Shown here one piece after another: positions 3 through 57,214 of a DNA stretch of 64,000 nt. Numbering within the stretch: position 1 is the first letter of the stretch; each line of letters opens with the position of its first letter. Both the position numbers and the translations under genes were made by a program. The stretch lies in sequence record MK817115.1; one strand, 5' to 3'. Below the pieces are notes generated by a model. It saw nothing but the letters and a program-made list of their open reading frames with translations, was not told where the DNA came from and did not search any database. Origin of the DNA: Escherichia phage vB_EcoM_phAPEC6.

Positions 3-1145
3 ATGTTACCTTTTGCAAGAATGGTTAAGTACGGGAATATTGCACCTGCACAAATCGGTAGATATAAAATATACAGTTCATCTTCTTCACTATTTTTATT
101 GGATACCCAAAAACACAATTTGTACAGTACATCGAACATTAATTATACTAGTGGTACAGGTAATGTTGAGCCTAAATTTGTGTTAAGTGCAACTAATGTT
201 AAAAGATTATTACTATCTGATAATAGTTGTGCAATGCAAATATATGAAGATATGAATGGGCGTGCAGCGATGTGTGGCACAAGAACTGCATATAGTGGGG
301 TTGCAAATGATAATGTACTGGTATGGACGGATTGCACTACATGGTTCACAAATGTAGGGTTGAATGTATCAGATATTCAGTACATGTCTGGTTTTTATAA
401 TCTGAAACTAAACATAGTTATGAATAATGGTGATTTGTGGTGTAGTGGGAAAAACAACACTACTACTATGTCATCATTTGGTAATAGCACAAATATCGAT
501 TCATTCAATCAGTTTACCAAAATAACAACAATATCAAATGTTATTAAAGCCACCGGGAATATATACTTATGTGCAGATAATACTTTATGGGGATGTGGTT
601 TTAACTCTTACTATCAGTTAGGGACAGGTAATCAAACATCCAGTATTAATTTGATTATGATGGCTTCTAATGTTATCGACTGTAATGTTGGTCTTCAAAA
701 TACTTATTACTTGACTAATAATAAAGAACTTTATGGATGTGGTACACAATTTGGTACAACTTACGGGAATGAATTTGGAACAGGAAGGCAGGGAACATCA
801 ATACAATATAAGACTCCTACTATAATTTTCACAAATGCAGATGGTCTGGCTGTTTGTGTCGGTAATATGTCTACTCATGTTATTCAATATGATAAAGTTT
901 TTAGTTCTGGTAATAATGCCCTTGCACAGTTGGGTGTAGGCAACCGTGACAATGTGTACACATATACACAATCATTTGATAATTTCAAAATGGATTCTTC
1001 TATAGTACGTGCAAACGTTGGAACATTGATAATGACAGCGGACAATAAGTTATATTACAGTGGGAGAAATGATGTTGTTATGGGTGGAACAAGCACACAA
1101 TACACGACGGTTTTCAGTGAAGTTAATATGTCATTTATACAATGA
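3..1145 (+). CDS. Array member 1: RCC1-like beta-propeller repeat protein with conserved N-terminal leader MLPFARMVKYGN
   Basis: ATG at 3 followed by the shared leader; repeated GxNxxGQLGxG-type blades (LWGCGFNSYYQLGTGNQT, VFSSGNNALAQLGVGNRD); upstream cassette lies outside the window. Confidence 0.85.
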   Translation: MLPFARMVKYGNIAPAQIGRYKIYSSSSSLFLLDTQKHNLYSTSNINYTSGTGNVEPKFVLSATNVKRLLLSDNSCAMQIYEDMNGRAAMCGTRTAYSGVANDNVLVWTDCTTWFTNVGLNVSDIQYMSGFYNLKLNIVMNNGDLWCSGKNNTTTMSSFGNSTNIDSFNQFTKITTISNVIKATGNIYLCADNTLWGCGFNSYYQLGTGNQTSSINLIMMASNVIDCNVGLQNTYYLTNNKELYGCGTQFGTTYGNEFGTGRQGTSIQYKTPTIIFTNADGLAVCVGNMSTHVIQYDKVFSSGNNALAQLGVGNRDNVYTYTQSFDNFKMDSSIVRANVGTLIMTADNKLYYSGRNDVVMGGTSTQYTTVFSEVNMSFIQ

Positions 1146-1217
1146 ATTAATGCCAGTACTTGATACTGGCTTTTCTTTTTTGTATTAAATATAGTATAAT
1201 GAATAAAGGAGGGAATT
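1146..1217 (+). promoter_or_regulatory. Array cassette: terminator hairpin + promoter-like box + RBS
   Basis: Hairpin GCCAGTA-CTTGA-TACTGGC followed by a T-run; invariant GTATTAAATATAGTATAATGAATAA; AAGGAGGG 7-8 nt before ATG. Confidence 0.7.
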
Positions 1218-2360
1218 ATGTTACCTTTTGCAAGAATGGTTAAGTACGGAAATGAAGCACCAGAACCAAAACCTCTATTTAAAAATAGATTACAAGCAAA
1301 TTATAATACTCGTTTTTATTTGCATGTTAATGGTGACTTGTACTGGTATGGTTCATCTTCATTTGGACAAGGTGGTAATGGTTCATTACAATCATCCACC
1401 GTATGGACCCGTGTGAATAATAATATTGAACGTTACTGGGGTGGTGTTCTTGGTTCCATTGCCATTAAGAATGATGGAACTATTTGGTTCACAGGTGCTA
1501 GTATAGTAATGCCACAAATCGGAACAAATACAAATGGGGTTTGGATTGATGTAACCCAGTACTTCACTGATTTTGGTGTCAGTGCTGATGATATTGATGG
1601 TATTGCTGTTGGACAGAATTTGCGTGTATTTTTGAAAAATGGAAAATGGTTCTACTGTGGTGCTGGCGAGGGTGGTGTATTTGGTAACGCATCAACAGCT
1701 AATGTCACATCGTTCAGATACAGCACTATAGAAAATGTTAAAAGTTATGGCTGTTCTTTGCTCAGTACTGGGTTAGTTCTTGATGATGGTTCCTATTGGT
1801 ATGCAGGAAATACTGTTGCTCCTGGTAGTACAACAACATCAAATATATTAAGTTTTACAAAAGACAATACGATCACCAATGCTATACAAGCTGTAAATAC
1901 ATACCGTACTTCATATATATTTCTTAATGATGGTTCAGTGAAGGTTGCTTCACCAAATGCATATGGTCAAGCTGGTGTAGGTAGAGTATCAGCAGTACCA
2001 ATGAGTACATTAATTCCCAATTTATCATTCCAAGGTGAAATAGAGTTGGTGGGTGGTTTATCCAACAACGAAGGGAATGGATGTGTTGTTAAAAATAATA
2101 ATAAGTTATATACTTGTGGTCGAAATACCTATGGTGCATGTGGTGTTAATCAAACATCCGAAAATATACTAACTTTCACCGAAATGGTTCTTGATGCATT
2201 AGAAGGAAGACGAATTTCAGGCTTCGTAATTGATAATTTCTATTCAATGATAATTGATGAAAATAACAATTTGTATATGAGTGGTTTGGCTGAACTTGGA
2301 AATGTTCCAGCCGTGAGAGTTCCAACCAGAGTCCCCGATTCCCTTCTACCGTGGAAATAA
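1218..2360 (+). CDS. Array member 2: RCC1-like beta-propeller repeat protein with MLPFARMVKYGN leader
   Basis: Shared leader; blade motifs LYWYGSSSFGQGGNG, LYTCGRNTYGACGVN; own cassette upstream. Confidence 0.85.
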   Translation: MLPFARMVKYGNEAPEPKPLFKNRLQANYNTRFYLHVNGDLYWYGSSSFGQGGNGSLQSSTVWTRVNNNIERYWGGVLGSIAIKNDGTIWFTGASIVMPQIGTNTNGVWIDVTQYFTDFGVSADDIDGIAVGQNLRVFLKNGKWFYCGAGEGGVFGNASTANVTSFRYSTIENVKSYGCSLLSTGLVLDDGSYWYAGNTVAPGSTTTSNILSFTKDNTITNAIQAVNTYRTSYIFLNDGSVKVASPNAYGQAGVGRVSAVPMSTLIPNLSFQGEIELVGGLSNNEGNGCVVKNNNKLYTCGRNTYGACGVNQTSENILTFTEMVLDALEGRRISGFVIDNFYSMIIDENNNLYMSGLAELGNVPAVRVPTRVPDSLLPWK

Positions 2361-2433
2361 TGTAATATGCCAGTACTTGATGCTGGCTTTTCTTTTTTGT
2401 ATTAAATATAGTATAATGAATAAGGAGGGATTT
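2361..2433 (+). promoter_or_regulatory. Array cassette: terminator hairpin + promoter-like box + RBS
   Basis: Same hairpin, TATTAAATATAGTATAAT box and AAGGAGGG as other cassettes. Confidence 0.7.
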
Positions 2434-3543
2434 ATGTTACCTTTTGGAAGAATGGTTAAGTACGGAAATATTGTACCTGGTCCTAAAAATATAATTAAAG
2501 TTGGTGCTTCTACACAAGGTCAATTCTTATTGACTGATTCACATGATTTATATTACATAGGTAGAAATCAAGGTGGTGAATCTGGAAATGGTAATACCAA
2601 CACGGTATCTTCATGGATATTAGTAAGTGCAGATGTTTCTAATTTTTTCGTGGGTGATCGTACACTTGTTATTATTAAAAATGATAATACTATATGGACA
2701 TCAGGTCAAACGTACTGGTTCTCATCTTCTACGACTACTTCTTACAGTACTGTATTAGTTGAAAGGACTAATTGGTTTACTAATGCTATACCAGTCAGTG
2801 AAATTGCTAATATTGTATGTACAAATGGTTTAATATTTGTACTTAGCACTAATTCAGTACTCTATGGTGCAGGAGATAATGGATATCGTGGTTCTTTGGG
2901 TATTGGTTCATCATCAATTTATACATTAACTCAATGTGCTACGAACGTTCGTAAAGTAATGACCAATGCGAATGATAGTATGTATCTTACATTAGATAAT
3001 AAGCTATATAGTTCTGGATGGAATAGTAGTGGGCAGCATGGTACGGGGAACCAAACACAAATTAACACTTGGGGATTGCGTAGTTCTGGTGTAATCGATG
3101 CAGCCATTGGTGGTAATGCATTAAATTACTATAATGGTACATCATATTTCGTATGTGGTCAAACTCCAAACTTTCTTAGTTCAGGTACGACTACATTCCG
3201 TGCAGTTCCTGTAAGTACTTTGCCTAATAGTTCTCCGTTGTTTATGACGAATTCACCTGCATTAAATACTGCTACACAAATGGTAATTACTAGTACATAT
3301 CAAAAGGGTGTTGGGGCGAACCGTGGTTTGGGATTAAACAATTCTCAAACTGGTGCTATATATAGTGCTACCAATTTACAATTACCCGTTGAAGTTAGTG
3401 AGATTAGGGATGTTCTTTTTAGTGATGGTTTGACATCGATATTAACCAAAAATGGAGATGTGTATAGTACTGGATCGTATTACGCCATTCCAGGTGCAAT
3501 CGAGGATGTTGCAGTCTTTACTAAAATTGATTTACCAAAATAA
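2434..3543 (+). CDS. Array member 3: RCC1-like beta-propeller repeat protein with MLPFGRMVKYGN leader
   Basis: ORF-track start 2377 lies inside the cassette; ATG at 2434 is RBS-preceded and gives the shared leader; blades LYGAGDNGYRGSLGIG, LYSSGWNSSGQHGTGN. Confidence 0.85.
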   Translation: MLPFGRMVKYGNIVPGPKNIIKVGASTQGQFLLTDSHDLYYIGRNQGGESGNGNTNTVSSWILVSADVSNFFVGDRTLVIIKNDNTIWTSGQTYWFSSSTTTSYSTVLVERTNWFTNAIPVSEIANIVCTNGLIFVLSTNSVLYGAGDNGYRGSLGIGSSSIYTLTQCATNVRKVMTNANDSMYLTLDNKLYSSGWNSSGQHGTGNQTQINTWGLRSSGVIDAAIGGNALNYYNGTSYFVCGQTPNFLSSGTTTFRAVPVSTLPNSSPLFMTNSPALNTATQMVITSTYQKGVGANRGLGLNNSQTGAIYSATNLQLPVEVSEIRDVLFSDGLTSILTKNGDVYSTGSYYAIPGAIEDVAVFTKIDLPK

Positions 3544-3613
3544 CATAATGCCAGTGCTTGATACTAGCATTCTTATTTGTATTAAATATAGTATAATGAA
3601 TAAGGAGGGAAAT
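3544..3613 (+). promoter_or_regulatory. Array cassette: terminator hairpin + promoter-like box + RBS
   Basis: GCCAGTGCTTGATACTAGC hairpin, TATTAAATATAGTATAAT, AAGGAGGG. Confidence 0.7.
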
Positions 3614-4810
3614 ATGTTACCTTTTGGAAGAATGATTAAGTACGGGAATATTGCACCAGGGCCAAGTCCAGTGGCTTTCTCTGACGTTCTACAACAACAT
3701 TACACAAACTGTATGTATCTACATACACCAACTAATACTTTATATGGTTATGGTAATAATAATTTATGTCAATTAGGTGTTGGGAATCAATCTATAGTTT
3801 CGACATTTACAGTACTTGCAAGGGGTTGTGCAGCCTTTTGGCTCGGTGTTCATGGTTCATTGATGATTGATTTGGATAATAGAATATACTACACTGGTTC
3901 TGGTGCTGCCTTTCCTGATTATGGAGATGCAACACTTGTGAATGGTTTTATGACACAATGGACGGATGTTACTGTTGCATTTAATAAAATTGGTGTTATT
4001 GCTAATATGATCAAGAGTGTACATATAGGTGAGAGTACTAGAATATTATTAACCGATGGTAGAGTAATTGCGTGTGGAAAAAACACTTATGGTGAATGTG
4101 GTTCTGGGAACACAAATGCTATCCCTACACTAACAGTTATGACTGACATGGGTGAAGTTTCTCAACTCGCGTGTTCATTACAGGGTACACACTATCTCAA
4201 AACAAATAAAGACGCATGGTTTTGTGGTAAGGATAATGTTGGTGCAAGTGGTTGTGGTGCTGCTGGTGTTGTACATCTTAATAAACTCGTAACAAGTAAT
4301 GTCGAATATATTAGTGCTACATATGATATAACTTGGTGGTTTATTAGAGGTGGTTATGTATACTATAGTGGTTCTAACTCGTTTGCACAAGCGGGTAATG
4401 GTACATTTTCATCAACTAATCAGCTTAGGCCCACTAGAAACTTAGATCTTGCTTCAATTGTAGTTGATGATAATTTTGTATGTCCTAGTAATATGGGGAA
4501 TAGTTCAATTGGTACACCTATGGCAAAATATGATCCGAATATTAGAAGTGGTGGTGTTAACACATATGGTCAGGAAGGTACAGGAAATAATAATATAGTG
4601 ACGAAGTGGAATACCTTTAACATTAGTGCAATCACTGGAGGATTTGACAATATTCTTATGGCATCTAAAGACTGGTGTAGGACAATAATTATTACTAAAG
4701 ATTACAAAGTGTATGCGTGTGGAGGATTTAATGGTTCTGGTGGTATCTTACCAGATGGTACTTATGCTATTAAAACATTAACATTAATGCCAACACAACA
4801 ATGGCAATAA
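3614..4810 (+). CDS. Array member 4: RCC1-like beta-propeller repeat protein with MLPFGRMIKYGN leader
   Basis: ATG at 3614 after RBS; blades LYGYGNNNLCQLGVGN, VIACGKNTYGECGSGN; ORF-track start 3452 is an upstream extension through the cassette. Confidence 0.85.
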   Translation: MLPFGRMIKYGNIAPGPSPVAFSDVLQQHYTNCMYLHTPTNTLYGYGNNNLCQLGVGNQSIVSTFTVLARGCAAFWLGVHGSLMIDLDNRIYYTGSGAAFPDYGDATLVNGFMTQWTDVTVAFNKIGVIANMIKSVHIGESTRILLTDGRVIACGKNTYGECGSGNTNAIPTLTVMTDMGEVSQLACSLQGTHYLKTNKDAWFCGKDNVGASGCGAAGVVHLNKLVTSNVEYISATYDITWWFIRGGYVYYSGSNSFAQAGNGTFSSTNQLRPTRNLDLASIVVDDNFVCPSNMGNSSIGTPMAKYDPNIRSGGVNTYGQEGTGNNNIVTKWNTFNISAITGGFDNILMASKDWCRTIIITKDYKVYACGGFNGSGGILPDGTYAIKTLTLMPTQQWQ

Positions 4811-4822
4811 TAGGAGAAAATA

Positions 4823-5992
4823 ATGTTACCTTTTGGAAGAATGATTAAGTACGGAAATATTGCACCAACACCACCGAAATTTAAAAAAATACTCGCCAAT
4901 AACTACAACGTTGCAGTTTTAACAAGCAGTGGGGATTTATATGTACGTGGGAATAATCAAAACGGTCAATTGGGTTTAGGTCACAAAGAAACAGTTACTA
5001 CATGGACGATTAGCACTTCTGGTGTTCAAGATTTTTGGTTTGGTAGTTCATCACTAGTGGTTAAGAAAACCGATGATGAAATATGGTACAGTGGGCAGTC
5101 AACTACAATTGGTATGCCAGGGGCATCCGTGTCAGTGTGGACTTCTGCCATGCCGACATTCAATACATTAACATTACCAATATTAGATATGGCAGTTAGT
5201 AATCAGACTACAAGTGTATTACTATCTGACCGAACAATATGGAGTAGTGGGGTAGGAAGCAATGGTCAATTGGGTAATGGAACTGCGACGAACAACATTT
5301 CAGGTAAATTCGTCCAAAGTACTGTTTCAACAGAAGAAGATCAATTACCAGTTAAATTGTTTGCCAGTAATTTAATGCATGGATATGTTACGTCGAACGG
5401 CTGGTTATACTACACTGGGCAACCCAATGCAGTTAGCACTAATGGCAGTGCGATATATAGTGTTTATACTAGTGCTCCTATTAGTCTAAGGAATTCCATT
5501 AATATCAAGTACTATACAAATAATGGAACTTCGATGGCGATGGCTATTGGTACAGATCCAAATGGCAAGACCGTAATTGCTAATGGCGGCCCTAGGATAT
5601 TTGGTGCACAGGCTGATGGAGTAAATGGTCAACTAAGTAATGTTAGGTCATTTGCTGTTCAAACCGAATCACTAATGCCACCAGGTGATGTAGTAAGTAT
5701 TGCTCATAATACTTCATATTATAACCAAGTTATTGCTACAACAGATGGTATATATTGTTGCGGCTACAACCGATCTACACAAGCTGGTATGTTAGGCATT
5801 GGTACATCTACTAACGCATTAGTATATACCAAAGCAATCGTACCTGATGGTTTTGATTATAGTAAATCGCAAATGGTAGGTGGGTATAACCGTACTTATA
5901 TAACTGATGGTAATTTTGTATATAGTGCTGGGACAGATGTCACATATGGTGGCGTTAGTAGCTTAGAATTTGTATTAGATTCACCAGTTTAA
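4823..5992 (+). CDS. Array member 5: RCC1-like beta-propeller repeat protein with MLPFGRMIKYGN leader; directly coupled to member 4
   Basis: Only 12 nt (TAATAGGAGAAAATA) separate it from member 4, no cassette; blades LYVRGNNQNGQLGLGH, IWSSGVGSNGQLGNGT. Confidence 0.85.
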   Translation: MLPFGRMIKYGNIAPTPPKFKKILANNYNVAVLTSSGDLYVRGNNQNGQLGLGHKETVTTWTISTSGVQDFWFGSSSLVVKKTDDEIWYSGQSTTIGMPGASVSVWTSAMPTFNTLTLPILDMAVSNQTTSVLLSDRTIWSSGVGSNGQLGNGTATNNISGKFVQSTVSTEEDQLPVKLFASNLMHGYVTSNGWLYYTGQPNAVSTNGSAIYSVYTSAPISLRNSINIKYYTNNGTSMAMAIGTDPNGKTVIANGGPRIFGAQADGVNGQLSNVRSFAVQTESLMPPGDVVSIAHNTSYYNQVIATTDGIYCCGYNRSTQAGMLGIGTSTNALVYTKAIVPDGFDYSKSQMVGGYNRTYITDGNFVYSAGTDVTYGGVSSLEFVLDSPV

Positions 5993-6062
5993 ATATATGC
6001 CAGTACTTGATACTGGCATTCTTATTTGTATTAAATATAGTATAATGAATAAGGAGGGAATT
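5993..6062 (+). promoter_or_regulatory. Array cassette: terminator hairpin + promoter-like box + RBS
   Basis: GCCAGTACTTGATACTGGC hairpin, TATTAAATATAGTATAAT, AAGGAGGG. Confidence 0.7.
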
Positions 6063-7253
6063 ATGTTACCTTTTGCAAGAATGATGAATTATGGGAATAT
6101 TGTGCCTGTACCACTACAAATTAAGAAAATAATACCAACTGATACTGATGTTGTTGTACTTTATACTGATGGTCAACTATACGCACGAGGCAGTAATAGT
6201 TTTGGGAAGTTTGGTAGAGGAAATAATAATGCAGTAAGGTCGTGGACATTAATTAGAGAAAATGTCAAAGATTGCTGGATGACACAAGGAACTTTGTTAG
6301 TTCAAGATAAGGACTTAAATTATTTTTATTGTGGATATGGTAGTCATATTGGTTTAGAAACTAGTACTACATCATTTTTAAGTTATAACCAATATATTGA
6401 AAATTTGTACACACAAAGTTCAAGTACTTCAATTAAACAGATGTATGCAGGTACTACGTGGTTTACTTTCTTAATGGATAATAATACAATATGGAGTACA
6501 GGGTGGAATAGTGCTAGACAATTCGCAGATGGTACAGGAACTACTTATCAAATATCAGATGGTTCATTTGTTAAAGCGGTAACACCAGATGTAGATATTG
6601 CACAAATACAGTCAACAAATTACTGTGTAATGTTTTTTGATACACAAAATAATTTATATATTGGTGGTAGTACATCTGGCATAAGTACTAGTACCACATG
6701 GACACCATTTAATGAATATACTTTGTATAAGCCAAGTACCACATATACAAAAACATTACAATATACTGGTTGTTCAATTGGTGCTGTCAGTGCTTTAGTA
6801 GAGAATCCAAGTACAGGAGCACGTCAGTTCCTAGTAGGTGGTAACGCTAATAATGGGGCATGGGGTAATAACACTACGAATAGTACAGCACTAGCAGTAT
6901 TAGGGAATAATAGTACTACATTACCATCAGGAACTTATTATTCAATCCATACTGGATATGCAGCACAATCTAGTATACTAGTTACGAGTACAGGTGTATA
7001 TGCAACTGGTTTAAATGCGAGTGGTTATGCTGGTACATTAGGTGTTGGTTCTAATGTTACTATTGGTAGATTTACTATATGTCCAATGCCAGCAGAAATA
7101 TCATATTCTATGTATGATAAAATAAAAATATATCGCGGTTCGTATCGTACTTTTCTAACTGCTGATATGAAAAATATATATTCAACCGGAACGTATGATG
7201 ATGGTGGACCTAGTACAAATAGATATGTTCTGGATACACCTAGACAATTGTAA
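6063..7253 (+). CDS. Array member 6: RCC1-like beta-propeller repeat protein with MLPFARMMNYGN leader
   Basis: ATG at 6063 after RBS; blades LYARGSNSFGKFGRGN, VYATGLNASGYAGTLGVG. Confidence 0.8.
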   Translation: MLPFARMMNYGNIVPVPLQIKKIIPTDTDVVVLYTDGQLYARGSNSFGKFGRGNNNAVRSWTLIRENVKDCWMTQGTLLVQDKDLNYFYCGYGSHIGLETSTTSFLSYNQYIENLYTQSSSTSIKQMYAGTTWFTFLMDNNTIWSTGWNSARQFADGTGTTYQISDGSFVKAVTPDVDIAQIQSTNYCVMFFDTQNNLYIGGSTSGISTSTTWTPFNEYTLYKPSTTYTKTLQYTGCSIGAVSALVENPSTGARQFLVGGNANNGAWGNNTTNSTALAVLGNNSTTLPSGTYYSIHTGYAAQSSILVTSTGVYATGLNASGYAGTLGVGSNVTIGRFTICPMPAEISYSMYDKIKIYRGSYRTFLTADMKNIYSTGTYDDGGPSTNRYVLDTPRQL

Positions 7254-7324
7254 TAATTTCGCCAGTACAAAGTACTGGCTTTCTTATTTGTATTAAATAT
7301 AGTATAATGAATAAAGGAGGAAGT
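7254..7324 (+). promoter_or_regulatory. Array cassette: terminator hairpin + promoter-like box + RBS
   Basis: GCCAGTAC-AAA-GTACTGGC hairpin, TATTAAATATAGTATAAT, AAAGGAGG. Confidence 0.7.
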
Positions 7325-8059
7325 ATGTTACCTTTTGGAAGAATGGTAAAGTACGGGAATAAAATTGAATATAAGCCAGATGGTGAACAATTAATCACGA
7401 CAATAGGAACAACACAATTTACAGTTCCTGCTGGCGTTACCGAAATATCAGTATGTGTTATTTCGCCGGGTGGTCAACGTGGTGCTGGTGGCGGCTTATC
7501 GTGGCGTAATAATATTCCGGTTACTAGTGGTGAGTACTTAAGTGTTTCTCTTACACATCCCAACACTACTACAGCAGTTGAAAACGGTTTATATCGTGGA
7601 ACTGAAAAACTATGTGTTAGCTTCACTGGTGAATATAGGGTTGGTGGACTAGGTGGGAAAGCTGCTAACGCTATTAATGATGGTGGTGGTAATGGGGGCA
7701 ACGCTGGTGTAAGTGGTGGTGCAGTCATTGGTGGTGGTGCTGGTGGCTACACTGGTAAAGGTGGTAACGGAGATGCAATCACTGGTGAAAATGGTGCTGG
7801 CGGCGGCGGTGGTGGTGCATTCTATAATACCTCGTTCATTGGTACGGGTGGTGGTACTGGTATCATTGTTCAAGGTGCTAATGGTATTGGCGGTAGATAC
7901 GATGGTTCATATAATGGTGGTGCTGGTAGTGGTGGTGCTGGTAAGATGTATGGTGGTGGTGGTAGTATATGGGATAATTTTTCTTATACGGCTGCTGGTG
8001 GTGGTGCTGTGCGAATAATATGGGGACGTGGGAGATATTATCCTAACAATTCAGTCTAA
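7325..8059 (+). CDS. Array member 7: glycine-rich low-complexity protein carrying the same MLPFGRMVKYGN leader
   Basis: ATG at 7325 after RBS; leader identical to neighbours; body is Gly-rich (GGGAGGYTGKGGNGD, GAGGGGGGAF) with no RCC1 blades. Confidence 0.75.
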   Translation: MLPFGRMVKYGNKIEYKPDGEQLITTIGTTQFTVPAGVTEISVCVISPGGQRGAGGGLSWRNNIPVTSGEYLSVSLTHPNTTTAVENGLYRGTEKLCVSFTGEYRVGGLGGKAANAINDGGGNGGNAGVSGGAVIGGGAGGYTGKGGNGDAITGENGAGGGGGGAFYNTSFIGTGGGTGIIVQGANGIGGRYDGSYNGGAGSGGAGKMYGGGGSIWDNFSYTAAGGGAVRIIWGRGRYYPNNSV

Positions 8060-8131
8060 AATATAGGCCAGTACTTTGTACTGGCTTTCTTATTTGTATT
8101 AAATATAGTATAATGAATAAGGAGGGGAATT
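8060..8131 (+). promoter_or_regulatory. Array cassette: terminator hairpin + promoter-like box + RBS
   Basis: GCCAGTAC-TTT-GTACTGGC hairpin, TATTAAATATAGTATAAT, AAGGAGGG. Confidence 0.7.
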
Positions 8132-9283
8132 ATGTTACCTTTTGGAAGAATGGTTAAGTACGGGAATATTGCACCAGTTCCAGTAGTTCCTACAATAAAA
8201 GATTTTAAGATTGGCTTTTCACATGAAGTGTTATTGGACAGTGAAGGTGATGTGTGGGGTATTGGATATAATACCGCTGGTCAGTTGGGATTTCTGGACG
8301 CTAACACAAATTCAATAGGAATGTGGTCTAAGATACATGAGAATGTTAGATTAATTGGCGTTACTACCAATTATACTGTAGTTGTTACAAATGATAATAG
8401 AATACTTTACGCCGGAAATAACTTAATTTCTAGTACTACAACGCTTGGGTGGAACGATATAACGTCTAGTATGGGAGCGGTTGTAGTGGATAGCATCGAT
8501 GCATTATATTGCACAGATGGCATGATGCATATTAAAACTGCTGATGGTTCTTTATACGCATATGGACGTAATATGAACGCAAACGCTGGAGTTACTGGTG
8601 TTTCTGGAGTTATTAGTGTTGCAACTAAAGTTAGTGGTTTACCATCGGCTGTGAAAGATATACGATATACGTTTAGTTATGGTACAGTACTATGTCAATT
8701 AGATACCACCTCGGTATATGGATGGGGAAGAAATGTCAATGGTGAATTAGGTCAGGGGAACGCAGCCGCAGTTCCTACCCCATCCCAAAGGGCGGGTGCT
8801 TCTATTGCTATAGGTACTTCGTATAATGCTACTGCAATTGTTTCCGGTACTGCATCGTTGGTTACATGTGGTGGACAAAATGATGGTCAGTTAGGTAATG
8901 GTATTACTACTGCTGGTAATGTATACACATATGGTGCTAGAGCATACCCAAGCGATCTTAATAATATAAGAAGTCCAGTGGATTGCAGTACAACTTATAC
9001 ATCTGCATTTATGAGTCCAGATGGCATATATTACACGGGTTCGAACCGAAGTGTGTTTGGTGGTCCGAGCGGGGCTGCCACTGTTGCATTATATACCAAA
9101 TGTAGTGATTTACCAATATTATATTCTAATATAACACAGTGGTGTAGTGGTACTATTGGTGGTGCGATATGTAGCAGTACTGAATTATATCAGTGTGGGA
9201 CCGGTAGATACATTGCCGGAGATGGGCAGAACGCAACTAGGTATGGGTTTAGAAAGACACCATTACCTTGGGATGTTTATTGA
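8132..9283 (+). CDS. Array member 8: RCC1-like beta-propeller repeat protein with MLPFGRMVKYGN leader
   Basis: Blades VWGIGYNTAGQLGF, VYGWGRNVNGELGQGN, VTCGGQNDGQLGNG. Confidence 0.85.
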   Translation: MLPFGRMVKYGNIAPVPVVPTIKDFKIGFSHEVLLDSEGDVWGIGYNTAGQLGFLDANTNSIGMWSKIHENVRLIGVTTNYTVVVTNDNRILYAGNNLISSTTTLGWNDITSSMGAVVVDSIDALYCTDGMMHIKTADGSLYAYGRNMNANAGVTGVSGVISVATKVSGLPSAVKDIRYTFSYGTVLCQLDTTSVYGWGRNVNGELGQGNAAAVPTPSQRAGASIAIGTSYNATAIVSGTASLVTCGGQNDGQLGNGITTAGNVYTYGARAYPSDLNNIRSPVDCSTTYTSAFMSPDGIYYTGSNRSVFGGPSGAATVALYTKCSDLPILYSNITQWCSGTIGGAICSSTELYQCGTGRYIAGDGQNATRYGFRKTPLPWDVY

Positions 9284-9355
9284 CATAAAGCCAGTACTCA
9301 AGTACTGGCATTTCTTTTTGTATTAAATATAGTATAATGAATAAAGGAGGAATTT
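9284..9355 (+). promoter_or_regulatory. Array cassette: terminator hairpin + promoter-like box + RBS
   Basis: GCCAGTACTCAAGTACTGGC hairpin, TATTAAATATAGTATAAT, AAAGGAGG. Confidence 0.7.
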
Positions 9356-17874: not shown

Positions 17875-18645
17875 TTAAATTTTCTCAAGGAACAAGTTTT
17901 CGCACTGCTCTTCCCAATCGTATGGGTTGTTGTTATATACTGCCGAAATCAACAGTGGCATACGCAGTGAAGGTGAACGAAGAGAATCTTCGTGCTTCAA
18001 CATCCAGTTCAGAATTGCTTTACTACCATTACGGTTAATACCCTTAGATTCTAAAATGTTAGTCTGATTCATCACGTTCTCAATGTGAATCATGATATCG
18101 CTTTTGGTCTGAATCTGTAAGTCAACGTATACAGAACGAGACATAAGAGCAGCATAGTGAGCAGACATTTTCGTTTTAGCTTTAGCATCTAATGCTAAAT
18201 CTTTGTTAGTGATGAATACGATACGACCGTTAAAATCAAAGCTGTTAGGGATACCGTTAGTGGTTAAGTACTTAGAGCTAGTCATGTAAGACACAGTACG
18301 TTTACCGCTGTCCAGTACTGCTTTGAGCAGGTTCATACCGTCTTCTGAATCAAAGATGCTGTCCATATCATCCAGTACTAATACGTTGGTGCTATGACGA
18401 TTCTTGTACAGAACTTCGTACAGAGCCAGAGTAGTCATTTTACCACTGATGGTAGCTACGTTCCATTCTGCTGCGTCATGAGCTTTCTGGAGGCGTTTAG
18501 ACAGGGTGTAAGTCTTACCAACACCAGGAGCACCACTGACAACCATACTTTTTACAGTACTGCTATCATCGAGCAAACACTCAAGAGCAACCATCATGGA
18601 GTTGAAGTTTTTCTGGATTTGAATGCTACGTGCTTCTCTGGTCAT
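17875..18645 (-). CDS. P-loop NTPase (AAA-type ATPase)
   Basis: Walker A GAPGVGKT and Walker B VLVLDD; GAGGA RBS. Confidence 0.7.
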   Translation of the reverse strand: MTREARSIQIQKNFNSMMVALECLLDDSSTVKSMVVSGAPGVGKTYTLSKRLQKAHDAAEWNVATISGKMTTLALYEVLYKNRHSTNVLVLDDMDSIFDSEDGMNLLKAVLDSGKRTVSYMTSSKYLTTNGIPNSFDFNGRIVFITNKDLALDAKAKTKMSAHYAALMSRSVYVDLQIQTKSDIMIHIENVMNQTNILESKGINRNGSKAILNWMLKHEDSLRSPSLRMPLLISAVYNNNPYDWEEQCENLFLEKI

Positions 18646-18669
18646 TTCGTTATCCTCATCAGTTGATGA

Positions 18670-18708
18670 AATAATTATAACAAAAAGGGCTGACCGAAGT
18701 CAACCCTT
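18670..18708 (-). promoter_or_regulatory. Composite terminator/early promoter element
   Basis: Minus strand: GGGTTGAC-UUCG-GTCAGCCC hairpin + T-run; the stem carries TTGACT, followed ~18 nt later by TTATAAT. Confidence 0.7.
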
Positions 18709-18712
18709 TTGT

Positions 18713-20599
18713 TTAGTTTTTTTTCACCCCACCCCATTTTTCATAGATTGCAATAATTTTATCTATGTTGTTTGGTGTAGTAGTTTCAGTATAACCATCT
18801 GGCATTTCTTGTTTAGTTAAAACGCCTTTACCAAATAGTTTTTTACATTCTTTTTCAGCTTCCTTACACTCAAACACAGATGTGAAAAAATACGTATGTA
18901 ACGATTCAATTTTAAATAATGATTTTTTATTTTGCTGCATAACCCTCTTACCTTTCTGCTTTTCAATACCATATTTCAATGCTACAGATAAATCACCATC
19001 CAAAATATTATGAATATATGCATATTGCTGAGAATGACCAGCCGCAAGTGGATGACCAGACCCACAAAGGTGACTTGCTGGAGTTTGCCAAAAGTCTCCA
19101 TACACTGGATGAGTTATTAATACTTTCGTTGAAGAATTTACATAATCAACTTTATCATAATTATATAAGTTATTATGAACTTCATTTGCTTTAATTTTAA
19201 ATTCATCACATGTATAAGGAACACCACCTTTGACTTTCGGGTGTCCTTTACCTGCCAAATGCCCATTTGGAGTTTGCCAAAAGTCTCCATACACTGGATG
19301 AGTTATTAATACTTTCGTTGAAGAATTTACATAATCAACTTTATCATAATTATATAAGTTATTATGAACTTCATTTGCTTTAATTTTAAATTGAGTTAGA
19401 TTTTTTATTTTAAAGTTAGCTGTATCATATTTCAAACTGTTTTTTAAATGTGTTAAGTGATTTTGTGGTGTACTTTTGAATTCTCCGTAAATTTTATGAA
19501 CTATAGTTACAGGTGTACTTTGATTTATATAGTTTACTCTATCATAGATATATTCTCCACTTGATTTGAACTCCAAGCACTTTTCTATAAATGTTTTAGT
19601 ATCTATATTTTTACAGTTTCCACAAGTTTTTAAATTTCTGTTCATTATAACGTCCACAGATATATCGTATTCACACCCACATGATTTATAACATACTTTA
19701 ATTTTCTTTTTTGTACCAACATCATCAGGTATTAGGATTGGTGTAATAAGTTGATTGTTAGGTGAACATTTGTAAAAATAATATAAAAAATTATTTTTTG
19801 TATAATGTGGTCTATGTACTATATTATTATTGATCAAATATGATGCTCTGGAAATACGATATAATACTCCTTCGTGTTCCGTTATTACAGGAGTTTTTTC
19901 ATTTTTCCATTCACTAAGAGATGATATTGCATATCCAATAATATTTTTACCAACCGACAATGCTTTTTCTTTCATTTTTTCGGCAAGACCGTAACCATGT
20001 TTTTTCATTTCCAATGGTGAAATCCACGAGAATGCAACATCATCCCCAAATATAAAATGGGAAATTGTAACACAATCATCATCAGTAGTCATGGATGTAT
20101 ATTCATTGTTATCTTCGATTTCTGATATTAATTCAGATTTACATTTAGAACAATTACAACCGATTTCATCACCCAGTGTAGAAATAGTAAGCGTTTTTTT
20201 AGTTCCATTTTTACAAATATATGGTATTTTTGTTGAATTATTTTTATAAACTTCAACTTCACCACTAACTGTATCAATTATGCCACCATAAGTACTAATC
20301 CAAGAATTAATTCTTTCCCTAACAATTAAAATATCTAAACTTTTAGCATGACCATTATACCAGTCTTCACATTCAGGACAACCAAATTTTTTAGATGGGT
20401 GTGTGAGGTTTGCGTGATCCATAAGATATACTTGTGATATGCCTGATTTGTGTTTTAATACATCATTGCAAACTACTTGGATGTTTTTTAATTTGGCATT
20501 TTCATACTTACTATAATCAGCTTCAATTGGAACGTTATGTTCTAATACTTTATTGTTGAATTTTTCTTTTGCTTGTTTAGGGGTTAATTTAGCTGGCAT
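18713..20599 (-). CDS. Cys-rich 628-aa protein with three tandem ~63-aa repeats
   Basis: Multiple CxxC pairs; repeat FKIKANEVHNNLYNYDKVDYVNSSTKVLITHPVYGDFWQTP occurs twice identically; AAAGGAG RBS. Confidence 0.7.
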   Translation of the reverse strand: MPAKLTPKQAKEKFNNKVLEHNVPIEADYSKYENAKLKNIQVVCNDVLKHKSGISQVYLMDHANLTHPSKKFGCPECEDWYNGHAKSLDILIVRERINSWISTYGGIIDTVSGEVEVYKNNSTKIPYICKNGTKKTLTISTLGDEIGCNCSKCKSELISEIEDNNEYTSMTTDDDCVTISHFIFGDDVAFSWISPLEMKKHGYGLAEKMKEKALSVGKNIIGYAISSLSEWKNEKTPVITEHEGVLYRISRASYLINNNIVHRPHYTKNNFLYYFYKCSPNNQLITPILIPDDVGTKKKIKVCYKSCGCEYDISVDVIMNRNLKTCGNCKNIDTKTFIEKCLEFKSSGEYIYDRVNYINQSTPVTIVHKIYGEFKSTPQNHLTHLKNSLKYDTANFKIKNLTQFKIKANEVHNNLYNYDKVDYVNSSTKVLITHPVYGDFWQTPNGHLAGKGHPKVKGGVPYTCDEFKIKANEVHNNLYNYDKVDYVNSSTKVLITHPVYGDFWQTPASHLCGSGHPLAAGHSQQYAYIHNILDGDLSVALKYGIEKQKGKRVMQQNKKSLFKIESLHTYFFTSVFECKEAEKECKKLFGKGVLTKQEMPDGYTETTTPNNIDKIIAIYEKWGGVKKN

Positions 20600-20828
20600 T
20601 ACTTAAAACTCCTTTCCAGTACTGAACCCGTCCAGCACCATTAATCTTAGCCTGAATCTTATCTTTTTCGACAAGACCTTCTTTGTAATCGATGGAAGTA
20701 TTATCACACTTAATTACATCCAAGTCAAGTACTTCTTGTGTACTTAATGAAGTATTGTCTGCAATTTGTTGTAATGTAATTATATCAGTACCGAAGAATT
20801 CTGCTAAACGTATAAAAGATAGTTTCAT
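20589..20828 (-). CDS. Hypothetical small protein
   Basis: 79 aa; GAGAGG RBS; immediately downstream of a composite promoter element. Confidence 0.55.
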   Translation of the reverse strand: MKLSFIRLAEFFGTDIITLQQIADNTSLSTQEVLDLDVIKCDNTSIDYKEGLVEKDKIQAKINGAGRVQYWKGVLSNAS

Positions 20829-20849
20829 GTATTACCTCTCGTTTCGATA

Positions 20850-20889
20850 AAATAATTATAGCAAAAAGGGCTGACCGAAGTCAACCCTT
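20850..20889 (-). promoter_or_regulatory. Composite terminator/early promoter element
   Basis: GGGCTGACCGAAGTCAACCC hairpin plus ATAATTATAG -10 region, near-identical to the element at 18670. Confidence 0.7.
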
Positions 20890-20893
20890 TATG

Positions 20894-21253
20894 TTATTCT
20901 AACTCACTCATTGTGGCGATAGTTAATCCCATTTCTTCTGCAATGTTGCATAGCAAACCAACTGCATTACGAAGAATATCAGTGTTGTCCACCGAGAATG
21001 ATGAGTTTTCATTTACAGTTGAAGACTCAATGTAGTACTCAAAATAACGAGAAGTTGAACGCACAACTTTAACACCTTCATACTTCTGTAGTTCAGAGTT
21101 GATACGCTCGATGAGCGAATCTTCCAGTACTCGATAGTCACCATTCATTCCACGTTTCCATCCATCAGCAGGACGGAAATAAAAAGTTTTTGTACGTTGA
21201 ATTGTTGAGATTGTTAGTGGGTTGTATTCTGCGATTTCACTTAAAGATGCCAT
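20894..21253 (-). CDS. Hypothetical protein
   Basis: 119-aa minus-strand ORF. Confidence 0.55.
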   Translation of the reverse strand: MASLSEIAEYNPLTISTIQRTKTFYFRPADGWKRGMNGDYRVLEDSLIERINSELQKYEGVKVVRSTSRYFEYYIESSTVNENSSFSVDNTDILRNAVGLLCNIAEEMGLTIATMSELE

Positions 21254-21316
21254 GTTGTATTCCTCATTTTCTTTGTTACATGATACTGAAAGATAAAACT
21301 GGTGTTAATGTTTTTT

Positions 21317-21751
21317 TTAGATCATAGAACGATAATACTCAGGTAACTCAACATCAGTAAATTTATACCACGTAGGCTTCATCTGGAGCTTCTCAATCAA
21401 ACGTTCACGAGACATTTTAATCTCTGACTCCGTTGGTATGTAGTCATTACAAAACTCAGCAGGGAAGCCGCTAATGTCGTTTACTTCAGTGTTTTGAATC
21501 TTCATACCACGACGCAGACATTCGTTGACAATATCAATATGACGCTTCTGTAAGTACAGTAACTTGTCGTAGAAAAATGTTACATGACCTGAACCTAACA
21601 GATAAGTACTGTTAATTTTGAAATCACGTACACGCTTACGTGCTTGAACGTGTTTTTGTACAGCACCAAATACACGTGGGAGTTCACGATATTCAGCCAT
21701 CAGATGTTGGTCAGCAAGTTCTTTAACGTGTACTAAGTTAATGCGTGTCAT
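21317..21751 (-). CDS. denV: Endonuclease V (pyrimidine-dimer DNA glycosylase), T4 DenV homologue
   Basis: [48 protein letters not shown] matches T4 DenV as I recall it; GAGAGGA RBS. Confidence 0.9.
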
Positions 21752-21774
21752 GTATTCATCCTCTCGTTTCGATG

Positions 21775-21814
21775 AAATGATTATAGCAAAAAGGGCCGAC
21801 TGAAGTCAACCCTT
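21775..21814 (-). promoter_or_regulatory. Composite terminator/early promoter element
   Basis: GGGCCGACTGAAGTCAACCC hairpin variant + T-run; GATTATAGC -10 region. Confidence 0.65.
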
Positions 21815-21907
21815 TTTTTTTCTTTCAATCAAACATAGTCTACCAGAATGTACCATGCGATGGTGATTAGAACAAAGAATCATACACTTCTTCATTGTTT
21901 AATCCAT

Positions 21908-26354: not shown

Positions 26355-26390
26355 ATCATAACAAAAAAGGCTGACCGAAGTCAACCCTTT
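26355..26390 (-). promoter_or_regulatory. Composite terminator/early promoter element
   Basis: GGCTGACCGAAGTCAACC hairpin + T-run with embedded TTGACT and TATGAT -10. Confidence 0.65.
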
Positions 26391-27444: not shown

Positions 27445-27474
27445 ACAAAAAAAGGCTGACCGAAGTCAACCTTT
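27445..27474 (-). promoter_or_regulatory. Composite terminator/early promoter element
   Basis: AAGGCTGACCGAAGTCAACCTT hairpin + T-run; TTGACT then GTAAATAC. Confidence 0.6.
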
Positions 27475-27481
27475 TGTTTTA

Positions 27482-32206: not shown

Positions 32207-32243
32207 AATTATAACAAAAAAGGCTGACCGAAGTCAACCTTTG
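32207..32243 (-). promoter_or_regulatory. Composite terminator/early promoter element
   Basis: AGGCTGACCGAAGTCAACCT hairpin + T-run; TTGACT then TTATAAT. Confidence 0.65.
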
Positions 32244-54514: not shown

Positions 54515-54535
54515 TTATACCTCTCATTGTTTATG

Positions 54536-54607
<72 letters not shown>

Positions 54608-54611
54608 TAAT

Positions 54612-55219
<608 letters not shown>

Positions 55220-55270
55220 ATAAACCTCACTATACGTAACTTACACCATATACGTCTGATTGTGGAATTC

Positions 55271-55295
55271 ATTATATCAGTACTGAACTATTTAG

Positions 55296-55299
<4 letters not shown>
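55271..55299 (-). promoter_or_regulatory. Sigma70-like early promoter with CAGTACTG spacer
   Basis: Minus strand: TTGACT-aaatagttCAGTACTGa-TATAAT; 25-nt core repeated at 54816, 55277 and 55687. Confidence 0.6.
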
Positions 55300-55709
<410 letters not shown>

Positions 55710-55718
55710 CTTTTTTTT

Positions 55719-55880
<162 letters not shown>

Positions 55881-55884
<4 letters not shown>

Positions 55885-56045
55885 AATCGTACCAGTAGTT
55901 CAATTAAGTACATTTCATATGCTGGATCGTTGATAAGTTTATCATACAGATGTGGCTCTGAAATGAATTCCCAATGATACTTTAGCCATCTACCGATACC
56001 CGAATATCTAAAATTAATGTCATTCATCCATTCTTCATGTGTCAT
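55881..56045 (-). CDS. MTHEEW-family small protein, copy 2 (54 aa; not in ORF track)
   Basis: MTHEEWMNDINFRYSGIGRWLKYHWEF...; tandem repeat unit ~162 bp; start overlaps stop of copy 3. Confidence 0.5.
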
Positions 56046-56206
56046 AATCGTACCATTATTTCAATAAAGAACCACGGATACACTTCATGATTCATAAGTT
56101 TATCGTATTCTGCTGGGTCTGATATGATTTCCCAATGATACTTTAGCCAACTACCGATACCCGAATATCTAAAATTAATGTCATTCATCCATTCTTCATG
56201 CGTCAT
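56042..56206 (-). CDS. MTHEEW-family small protein, copy 3 (54 aa; not in ORF track)
   Basis: MTHEEWMNDINFRYSGIGSWLKYHWEI...; near-identical to copy 2. Confidence 0.5.
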   Translation of the reverse strand: MTHEEWMNDINFRYSGIGSWLKYHWEIISDPAEYDKLMNHEVYPWFFIEIMVRL

Positions 56207-56229
56207 GGTTTTTAACCTTTAATTAAAAT

Positions 56230-56306
56230 TGGCCGAGGTAGAGGGACTTGAACCCCCAACCTAGAGATTAGAATTCTCTTGCACTATCCAATTGTGCTAT
56301 ACCCCG
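56230..56306 (-). tRNA. tRNA-Arg (anticodon UCU), CCA encoded
   Basis: D-arm GCAC..GTGC, anticodon stem-loop AGAGA-AUUCUAA-UCUCU, T-arm GGGGG-TTCAAGT-CCCTC, 3' GCCA. Confidence 0.75.
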
Positions 56307-56310
56307 TATT

Positions 56311-56426
<116 letters not shown>

Positions 56427-56459
56427 ATGTTATGTCCCATTATATAATGAATTAATGAT

Positions 56460-56678
56460 TTATGCAAGTGCTTTAGATACACCGACACCAATAATTCCAG
56501 TGATATCGATATGGATATTGGCAAGTTGATTACTATCATATGGGTTTGTTTCTGTAATAACCAATGTTGTATCATTGACTAAAACCACAGTACCTTTTAC
56601 ACGATAACCATGTAGTAGTACTTGAACCTCATCTTCAGGTTTTAATGATTGAATAACTTCAAATAAAGTTGTTTCCAT
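56460..56678 (-). CDS. Hypothetical small protein
   Basis: Start set to ATG 56678 (AAGGAA RBS; METTLFEV...); the longer ORF-track form overlaps the neighbour by 92 nt. Confidence 0.45.
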   Translation of the reverse strand: METTLFEVIQSLKPEDEVQVLLHGYRVKGTVVLVNDTTLVITETNPYDSNQLANIHIDITGIIGVGVSKALA

Positions 56679-56694
56679 TTTTTGTATTCCTTGT

Positions 56695-56877
56695 TTAGTT
56701 TTGATTATTTGACTTTCTAAATGCCAGTTCGCATATAAACCAGGGTTTTCTGGTATCCAAAACATATGACCTGAAAAGATTTTCATCTCTTAATATATCA
56801 TAATGTACCTGACGAATGCCATTCCCAAAGCAGTCATGTTCTTTATGCTGTTTGGACATCCATTCTTCGTGTGTCAT
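56695..56877 (-). CDS. MTHEEW-family small protein, copy 4
   Basis: ATG at 56877 gives MTHEEWMSKQHKEHDCFGNGIRQVHYDIL...; the ORF-track start at 56895 appears to be a TTG codon. Confidence 0.55.
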   Translation of the reverse strand: MTHEEWMSKQHKEHDCFGNGIRQVHYDILRDENLFRSYVLDTRKPWFICELAFRKSNNQN

Positions 56878-56878
56878 T

Positions 56879-57214
<336 letters not shown>

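Follow-up and report, generated by a model that had tools for sequence, protein, structure and literature searches.

We found that a 628-aa gene of a jumbo coliphage carries a perfect, in-frame repeat of 125 nt shared by two neighboring modules of what appears to be a homing-endonuclease-like protein, in which an array of DNA-binding modules is followed by a C-terminal T5orf172-type nuclease domain. With a probability of roughly 0.75, we read the gene as a free-standing homing-endonuclease-like member of the T5orf172 class and its repeat as the product of recent recombination between neighboring modules. The evidence consists of the repeat itself, the architecture of the protein, the homology of its modules, the fold and conserved core of its nuclease domain, a series of natural alleles, and the polymorphism of the locus. 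Positions 17800–21800 of the window (the whole 64,000-nt stretch of phAPEC6 DNA that was analyzed) are 100% identical to Escherichia phage vB_Eco_slurp01 (LT603033.1), a jumbo myovirus of ~348 kb (genus Asteriusvirus, species PBECO4), and we use the name slurp01 for the gene and its protein.

Domain architecture of the encoded protein

The gene lies on the minus strand at positions 18713–20599, as delineated in the list of open reading frames (ORFs), and all other features given below are on the same strand. Its record annotation is PSLUR01_00127, "hypothetical protein." In PHROGs the protein falls in "endonuclease" families, matching phrog_681 at 7.8e-57, and with this match and the analysis of the family a functional annotation is now on offer for the gene. 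Pfam, NCBIfam, and PDB-sequence searches with the whole protein and four subsegments gave no significant match; the family profile returned from the PDB sequences a spurious TUP1 match alone (E 0.15), and a Foldseek search of the PDB, made within the analysis of the 628-aa protein, returned nothing below E 0.7. The repeat region had no match in complete E. coli genomes and is thus not a prophage gene there. The whole-protein homologs carry precomputed matches to PF05265 (DUF723), PF14311 (DUF4379, a treble-clef zinc finger), and PF21817 (CapR homology), and their C-terminal nuclease domains vary, being of the GIY-YIG, T5orf172, or MTES_1575/DUF559/Vsr-like type.

The C-terminal domain (aa 522–628; 18716–19036) is, by its conserved residues, a divergent T5orf172-type domain of the GIY-YIG superfamily. 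It shows a GIY-YIG-type alpha/beta fold and holds the core residues, that is, the first-strand Tyr, K/Y-x-G, the Arg, and the catalytic Glu. Eight residues (Y528, K542, G544, R552, E582, D601, G602, and E605) do not vary in sets of 42 and 86 family sequences, and the query has all of them as well as the conserved N557. The conserved core of the putative nuclease domain is thus intact; the invariant positions are presumably the counterparts of the I-TevI catalytic residues. Assignment to a known family came through the relatives: the query had no match to the Pfam T5orf172 profile at E ≤ 10 and the domain alone had none at E ≤ 0.01, and 29 of the 86 nuclease-only segments of the family matched PF10544 (best 7e-6) and 18 matched PF13455 (MUG113), with no other family recurring. 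All the matching segments are relatives of the query at E ~1e-17 or better. These relatives were collected with an exhaustive HMMER search; a word-indexed search with the C-terminal domain had given one protein only. Comparing the nuclease-only profile with single T5orf172 (P0055) and GIY-YIG (P0022) sequences in hhalign was uninformative (probability <1%), and the family HMM gave nothing significant against nonfamily homologs. No sequence similarity was detectable to GIY-YIG homing endonucleases such as I-TevI or to the structure-specific nucleases SLX1 and HIGLE. The arrangement differs from that of I-TevI as well: repeated treble-clef modules make up the N-terminal DNA-binding part of slurp01, and in I-TevI a helix-turn-helix comes after a zinc-finger linker.

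For the DNA-binding part, we built a module HMM solely from the modules of other family members, leaving the query out. The HMM identified three modules before the nuclease domain. The last two, M2 (aa 403–465; 19205–19393) and M3 (aa 466–521; 19037–19204), are of the CapR/DUF723 type and match at 2.3e-15 (aa 404–458) and 2.5e-15, respectively; the AF2 model of M3 has a pLDDT of 95.9, and hhalign aligns this last module to canonical Cys-containing modules with probabilities of 98.5% (P0055) and 98.4% (P0022). The first, M1 (aa 334–402; 19394–19600), is diverged and truncated, matching at residues 337–382 (E 1.8e-11; model positions 2–47 of 58) and showing, in its core, 47% nucleotide identity to M2 and M3. 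The G-x-G-H/C-P knuckle is missing from it, and a scar-like NFKIKNLTQ closes it directly before the start of M2, FKIKANEV. M1 is the third, diverged repeat that a preliminary description of the sequence had placed downstream; it exists but, as the gene is on the minus strand, lies upstream of the other two in the gene. A domain search of the repeat unit, proposed in the same description, thus finds homology to the CapR/DUF723/DUF4379 treble-clef modules at the profile level (module HMM 1.8e-11 to 2.5e-15; hhalign 98.4–98.5%), but the Pfam models of these modules gave no match in the query protein, and the zinc ligands are absent from the unit. The cluster representative has a precomputed match to PF05265.

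The N-terminal half contains modules of the zinc-finger type. Module N1 (aa ~27–80; 20360–20521) holds C44, H50, C74, and C77 and an insertion, and is outlined by weak module-HMM fragments (29–46 and 71–77), by the homolog P0260, which matches aa 1–186 at 3e-70, and by an AF2 pLDDT of 63–81. Module N2 (aa ~95–160; 20120–20317) is of the CapR type, with a module-HMM match of 3e-05 and a pLDDT of 64–86; residues ~70–170 align with the CapR repeats of Pfam-recognized proteins (P0219, P0218, P0222, and P0199) at 2e-39 to 3e-19, with C129, C150, and C153 invariant. In N2 the usual His is replaced by Asn, and there is an extra adjacent Cys, C148. A Cys cluster, N3 (aa ~291–331; 19607–19729; C303, C307, C309, C326, and C329), has a weak HMM fragment at 295–330 and AF2 confidence <50, and we tentatively regard it as a possible third Cys-containing module. 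Across the whole half, the weak Cys-containing fragments of the module HMM fall at aa ~29–77, 111–153, and 295–330. The AF2 model of this half (mean pLDDT 57.8, falling below 50 for aa 166–190 and 221–340) is usable for aa 1–165, the only part with moderate confidence; two units of the helix/beta-hairpin/helix type are visible there.

All three CxxC motifs (CPEC, CSKC, and CGNC, at aa 74, 150, and 326, respectively) are in the N-terminal half, agreeing with the several CxxC pairs noted there at the outset. The label of a Cys-rich repeat protein with zinc-binding modules applies only in part: the N-terminal modules are Cys-containing and of the zinc-finger type, but the repeated units are neither Cys-rich nor ligand bearing. 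The four ligand positions are occupied by H, Y, H, and V in M2 and by H, Y, H, and A in M3 (H497, Y500, H516, and A519); the four-ligand feature is found in the N-terminal half only. We took a census of the module preceding the nuclease domain in 149 family representatives. The first and the last ligand positions are Cys in 138 and 139 of them, respectively (~93%), and the second is His or Cys. The ligands are missing from only ~10 of the 149 (patterns such as DFHA, DFHR, DYHR, and DFNR), all of them among the closest relatives of slurp01. M1–M3 have thus lost all four zinc ligands and appear to be derived modules, and the census identifies a subclade with DNA-binding modules of this ligand-less kind. 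The DNA-binding part as a whole would then be a "beads-on-a-string" array of CapR/DUF723/DUF4379-type treble clefs, with two or three Cys-containing modules at the N terminus and the ligand-less M1–M3 directly before the nuclease domain.

A polymorphic cassette between promoter stem-loops

The gene shares its transcription unit with a 79-aa ORF (20589–20828; phrog_34150) that overlaps the start of the endonuclease by 11 nt, and a comparison with empty sites places both in the same indel cassette. The cassette is bounded by two perfect copies of a 45-nt element, 2,181 nt apart. The copy at 20846–20890, upstream and at the left boundary, consists of a stem-loop and a promoter in which a spacer of 18 nt separates the TTGACT -35 box from a TG-extended TATAAT -10 box; the copy at 18665–18709, downstream and at the right boundary, forms a terminator-like hairpin and provides the promoter of the next gene. 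The element has a 12-bp stem and a TTCG loop, with TTGACT within the 5' arm, and its promoter has 11 of 12 matches. At least six copies are present in the window, where none is expected by chance. We considered the flanking copies as element-specific ends and rejected this, as the 45-nt sequence is a dispersed promoter/terminator motif; the copies still mark the indel boundary.

Such promoter-terminator cassettes (PeSLs) are known from T4-type phages (Arbiol 2010, PMC2839356; Comeau 2014, PMC4122927). As in those, the elements combine a stem-loop with a near-consensus, early-type sigma-70 promoter, are scattered through a variable region, and coincide exactly with the boundary of an indel between close relatives, and the stem, AAAGGG...CCCTTT, resembles the nt-1-type consensus; unlike those, they sit in an Asteriusvirus jumbo phage. 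The phage SP27, of the same species, lacks both genes and has a clean empty site with a single 45-nt element, within which the crossover is located by two diagnostic SNPs. Even more is missing at the locus of EC.P1. The gene is present in slurp01, phAPEC6, E9.1, and A4, and the same slot is occupied by other endonuclease genes of the family in 121Q, Turkey3, and WPEC3. The locus thus shows patchy presence, absence, and replacement among close relatives at a conserved position. Patchy presence and allelic replacement are what homing genes produce and would be explained by homing here, and the cassette boundaries also fit promoter-terminator shuffling by PeSLs; the two processes are not mutually exclusive.

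Under homing, the module array would bind a long asymmetric DNA target, and the T5orf172 domain would cut nearby DNA in co-infecting phage genomes that do not have the gene, after which repair would copy the cassette. Cutting of such gene-free genomes may drive the inheritance of the gene in co-infections, and a change in the number of modules would be expected to alter the length or the specificity of the target. Alternatively, the protein could be a domesticated derivative that is no longer actively homing, serving as a DNA-binding regulator or as a nuclease against competitors or satellites, with PLE CapR and ICP1 Odn as precedents. CapR, after which this type of DNA-binding module is named, is a domesticated relative with sequence-specific DNA binding that acts as a repressor (Netter et al. 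2021, PMC8096241), satellites are the targets of related nucleases (PMC8096241, PMC10448857), and PeSL-like elements, which are able to move cassettes without a nuclease (PMC4122927), lie at the boundaries of the cassette. CapR, however, has no nuclease domain, whereas slurp01 retains one with every family-invariant residue, and the pattern of presence and replacement at a single locus is typical of homing genes, so we consider domestication unlikely, if the most plausible of the alternatives. The two proteins differ further in their modules: DNA binding by CapR needs paired cysteines, which the repeated modules of slurp01 do not have.

The repeat, its tails, and its alleles

The two copies of the perfect repeat form the cores of M2 and M3. 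Copy A (19268–19392; nucleotides 1208–1332 of the gene) and copy B (19079–19203; nucleotides 1397–1521) are 100% identical over 125 nt, start 189 nt or 63 codons apart and in frame, and each encode (Q/E)FKIKANEVHNNLYNYDKVDYVNSSTKVLITHPVYGDFWQTP. The perfect repeat with a period of 189 bp (63 aa) in the preliminary description is therefore real, with errors of 1 nt in the coordinates and ~2 nt in the length given there. A scan of the whole 64-kb window found this pair to be the sole long direct repeat at 100% identity, the remaining direct-repeat families having 61–91% identity; Tandem Repeats Finder did not report the 125-nt repeat.

The remaining 64 nt of the period differ between the modules. 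Tail A (19204–19267) encodes NGHLAGKGHPKVKGGVPYTCDE, the ligand-less knuckle of M2 and the linker to the next module, and tail B (19015–19078) encodes ASHLCGSGHPLAAGHSQQYAY, the knuckle of M3 and the junction into the nuclease domain. The two tails (nucleotides 1333–1396 and 1522–1585 of the gene) are 34% identical, which is near random for AT-rich DNA here. Tail A contains GHP, basic residues, and G, followed by T-x-[DE]-[EQ]-F, and the same features are found in the linkers of the Turkey3 and WPEC3 homologs; it aligns with the linker of Turkey3 module M4. In the Turkey3 homolog (44% identical), the penultimate module ends with ...RGCGHPRRGGKAKKTTEQF and the last with ...RGSGHPLRAGYSQQYAYVN, giving the same two kinds of tail. 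Tail A thus looks like an evolved inter-module linker and tail B like a module-to-nuclease junction. As both types recur in Turkey3, the two-module layout with position-specific tails predates the perfect identity of the cores, and this identity is best read as recent homogenization by gene conversion or unequal crossover between the neighboring modules.

Tail A and the adjoining core could instead have entered from a paralogous or foreign T5orf172 gene by a domain swap. Such genes are reported to swap domains (PMC10448857), related jumbo phages have 2–12 places matching the 628-aa protein, and different family genes hold the same slot in relatives. We found no donor of the tail A DNA in the window or in 50,697 phage records, among which tail A occurs in slurp01 and E9.1 only, and there is no paralog of the gene within the 64-kb window; moreover, the incoming core would need to be identical to the resident core at 125 of 125 positions. 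We regard such an import as improbable.

An alignment of three deposited phages showed a series of alleles. The gene of A4 has 1,698 nt (565 aa), with a single core and then tail B, and is exactly 189 nt shorter than that of slurp01, which has 1,887 nt and two core copies; the gene of E9.1 has 1,964 nt, with two copies and an extra, frameshifting partial copy of 77 nt, and its annotation splits it into two CDSs. The genomes are otherwise 94–100% identical around the gene, and the alleles make a clean natural series (one copy, two copies, and two copies with a frameshifting partial copy) for the gain, loss, and homogenization of modules in a modular phage nuclease. A Logan contig of the run ERR1546644 is 99.85–100% identical to the window over 8.9 kb yet has one copy, and represents either a very recent deletion allele or a collapse in the k-mer graph.

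A one-copy allele in A4 and in this contig, together with the exact identity and the in-frame period, could be taken to indicate a clean recent tandem duplication of a 189-nt unit by replication slippage from an A4-like ancestor. A tandem duplication copies the whole unit, yet 64 of the 189 nt are as dissimilar as the tails while the other 125 have no differences; the one-copy alleles do not contain tail A, which cannot be derived from them, and the conserved linker features noted above for Turkey3 and WPEC3 recur in this tail. Slippage is therefore very improbable. The preliminary description had spoken of a recent in-frame duplication: the repeat is indeed in frame and recent at the sequence level, but it is not a simple tandem copy of 189 nt. 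With recombination between neighbors as the preferred reading, gene conversion or unequal crossover would have homogenized the cores of M2 and M3 while each module kept its own tail, the inter-module linker in M2 and the module-to-nuclease junction in M3. The repeats may now act as recombination substrates, giving rise to the one-copy allele of A4 through an in-frame deletion of 189 nt and to the two-copy allele of E9.1 with its frame-breaking partial copy of 77 nt.

Judging from the homologs, concerted evolution of modules appears to be a property of the family, best explained by recurrent gene conversion or other recombination between adjacent modules. In Turkey3, the five modules are 82–95% identical among themselves at the nucleotide level and ~50% identical to those of slurp01, and perfect repeats of 134, 116, and 75 nt occur within the gene; the six modules of WPEC3 are 48–72% identical to one another and the three Cys-containing modules of Iguana are 49–59% identical. 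T5orf172 homing endonucleases have been described as "beads on a string" repeat proteins, and in gp174 of the Vibrio phage ICP1 recombination between nucleotide repeats gave an in-frame deletion of 228 bp (gp174*), with duplications and domain swaps found as well (Barth, Dunham & Seed 2023, PMC10448857). The slurp01 gene resembles gp174 in its architecture, with CapR-type modules arrayed toward the N terminus and a T5orf172 domain at the C terminus, in its nucleotide-level repeats between modules and the evidence of duplication, and in its in-frame deletion allele by inter-repeat recombination, of 189 nt in A4 as against the 228 bp of gp174*. It differs in that its host is a ~348-kb Asteriusvirus jumbo coliphage, its nuclease belongs to a divergent subfamily missed by Pfam PF10544, its three repeated modules are without all four zinc ligands, and its repeat tract is perfect (125 of 125) rather than degenerate.

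Recombination between modules is thus already published for this gene family, and the slurp01 repeat is a clear but ordinary example of it. Rather than founding a new class of system, the gene carries what was published for ICP1 over to jumbo coliphages, and it goes modestly beyond the literature with the perfect 125-nt tract and its position-specific tails, the series of one, two, and two-plus-partial copies in jumbo coliphages, the clade of ligand-less modules, and the PeSL-like boundaries. A more far-reaching idea is that the ligand-less modules are a zinc-independent version of the CapR treble clef and that their rapid homogenization and copy-number change adaptively retarget the nuclease, in the manner of a natural repeat-array code with identical neighbors reading a tandemly repeated DNA motif. 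The copy numbers meant here run from one, two, and two plus a partial in the slurp01-type alleles to five or six near-identical modules in the Turkey3 and WPEC3 homologs; we hold the idea to be quite doubtful.

Copy number in independent assemblies

The possible collapse or expansion of the repeat in assembly, raised at the outset, is largely answered by the junctions. The assemblies of slurp01, phAPEC6, TZC62122.1, E9.1, and NEP96 all show the two-copy junctions, from the upstream flank through the core into tail A and from tail A through the core into tail B, and the presence of these junctions in at least five independent assemblies indicates that the two-copy repeat is not an artefact. An exact-sequence look-up found the identical 628-aa protein on three contigs, those of slurp01, phAPEC6, and an E. 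coli assembly. The phAPEC6 assembly is MiSeq-only, and that of slurp01 was made from 2 × 250-nt MiSeq reads at 381× depth; as these reads exceed the 125-nt core in length, one read can anchor a copy on both sides. That the deposited repeat number is wrong is hardly credible: both of these are short-read assemblies, the Logan contig of a 99.85–100% identical genome shows a single copy, the additional 77-nt partial copy of E9.1 is odd, and several E. coli drafts break within the repeat, but the junctions recur in the five assemblies, the core is shorter than the slurp01 reads, and tail A is unique sequence, which a misassembly cannot create.

A practical consequence is that short-read assemblies break at the repeat or may collapse it. 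In draft E. coli assemblies, fragments of the gene begin or stop inside the repeat; one draft fragment of 498 aa passes through copy A, then tail A, and on into copy B; the partner fragment runs from the core into tail B.

The PeSL-like element and the flanked cassette

Copies of a PeSL-like element are dispersed at 18665-18709, 20846-20890, 21787-21815, 26362-26390, 27447-27475 and 32215-32243, all on the minus strand. The element contains a stem-loop, AAAGGGTTGAC-TTCG-GTCAGCCCTTT, whose stem includes a -35 box (TTGACT), followed 18 nt downstream by a TG-extended TATAAT. The 45-nt copies at window positions 18665-18709 and 20846-20890 are perfect and flank a cassette of 2181 nt; phage SP27 lacks this cassette, and the crossover point lies within the PeSL-like element.

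Module junctions and repeat copies in related genes

In the homing-endonuclease-like gene, the junction between the diverged, truncated module M1 and the following module M2 (window 19394-19420, approximately residues 394-402) reads ...TANFKIKNLTQ|FKIKANEV..., and a partial, degenerate copy of a module start occupies the place expected for the knuckle (the G-x-G-H/C-P segment) and linker of M1. The junction looks like a scar left by an older recombination event. In phage E9.1 (sequence L001, 3708-3786), the repeat core shared by M2 and M3 is present in an additional partial copy of 77 nt, whose position corresponds to a point immediately upstream of window 19392. This copy shifts the reading frame, and the gene is annotated as two CDSs, "HNH endonuclease" and "endonuclease"; the copy reflects either genuine pseudogenisation or an error in the assembly. 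Compared with the flagged gene of the window, the homologous gene of phage Turkey3 (L005, 2584-3882) is a stronger case of the repeat phenomenon, comprising five near-identical modules devoid of zinc-ligand residues, with perfect repeats of 134, 116 and 75 nt inside the gene.

The denV and ATPase-like neighbours

The whole region is a mosaic. The neighbouring denV gene (endonuclease V; window 21317-21751, minus strand) occurs in two lengths, 435 nt in slurp01, A4 and Turkey3, and 516 nt in 121Q, E9.1 and SP27. A4 has a second ORF annotated as "endonuclease V", of 219 nt, beyond the ATPase-like gene. The latter is a conserved neighbour (window 17875-18645, minus strand; phrog_1250) encoding an AAA-type ATPase-like protein of 256 aa with weak matches to clamp-loader and AAA_16, annotated in relatives as "ATP-binding protein" or "FleQ".

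Tandem arrays elsewhere in the window

On the plus strand, positions 3-14189 of the window contain twelve paralogous ORFs (250-452 aa) arranged in tandem at a spacing of ~1.2 kb, each starting with a conserved ribosome-binding site and the sequence MLPF(G/A)RM(V/I)KYGN. A tRNA cluster on the minus strand (Asn, Met, Ser-act, Arg-tct, Ser-tga and Gly-tcc; window 54535-57192) includes three tRNAs of 90-92 nt. Within it, three tandem 54-aa ORFs at 55720-56206 form a 161-nt tandem repeat with 83% identity.
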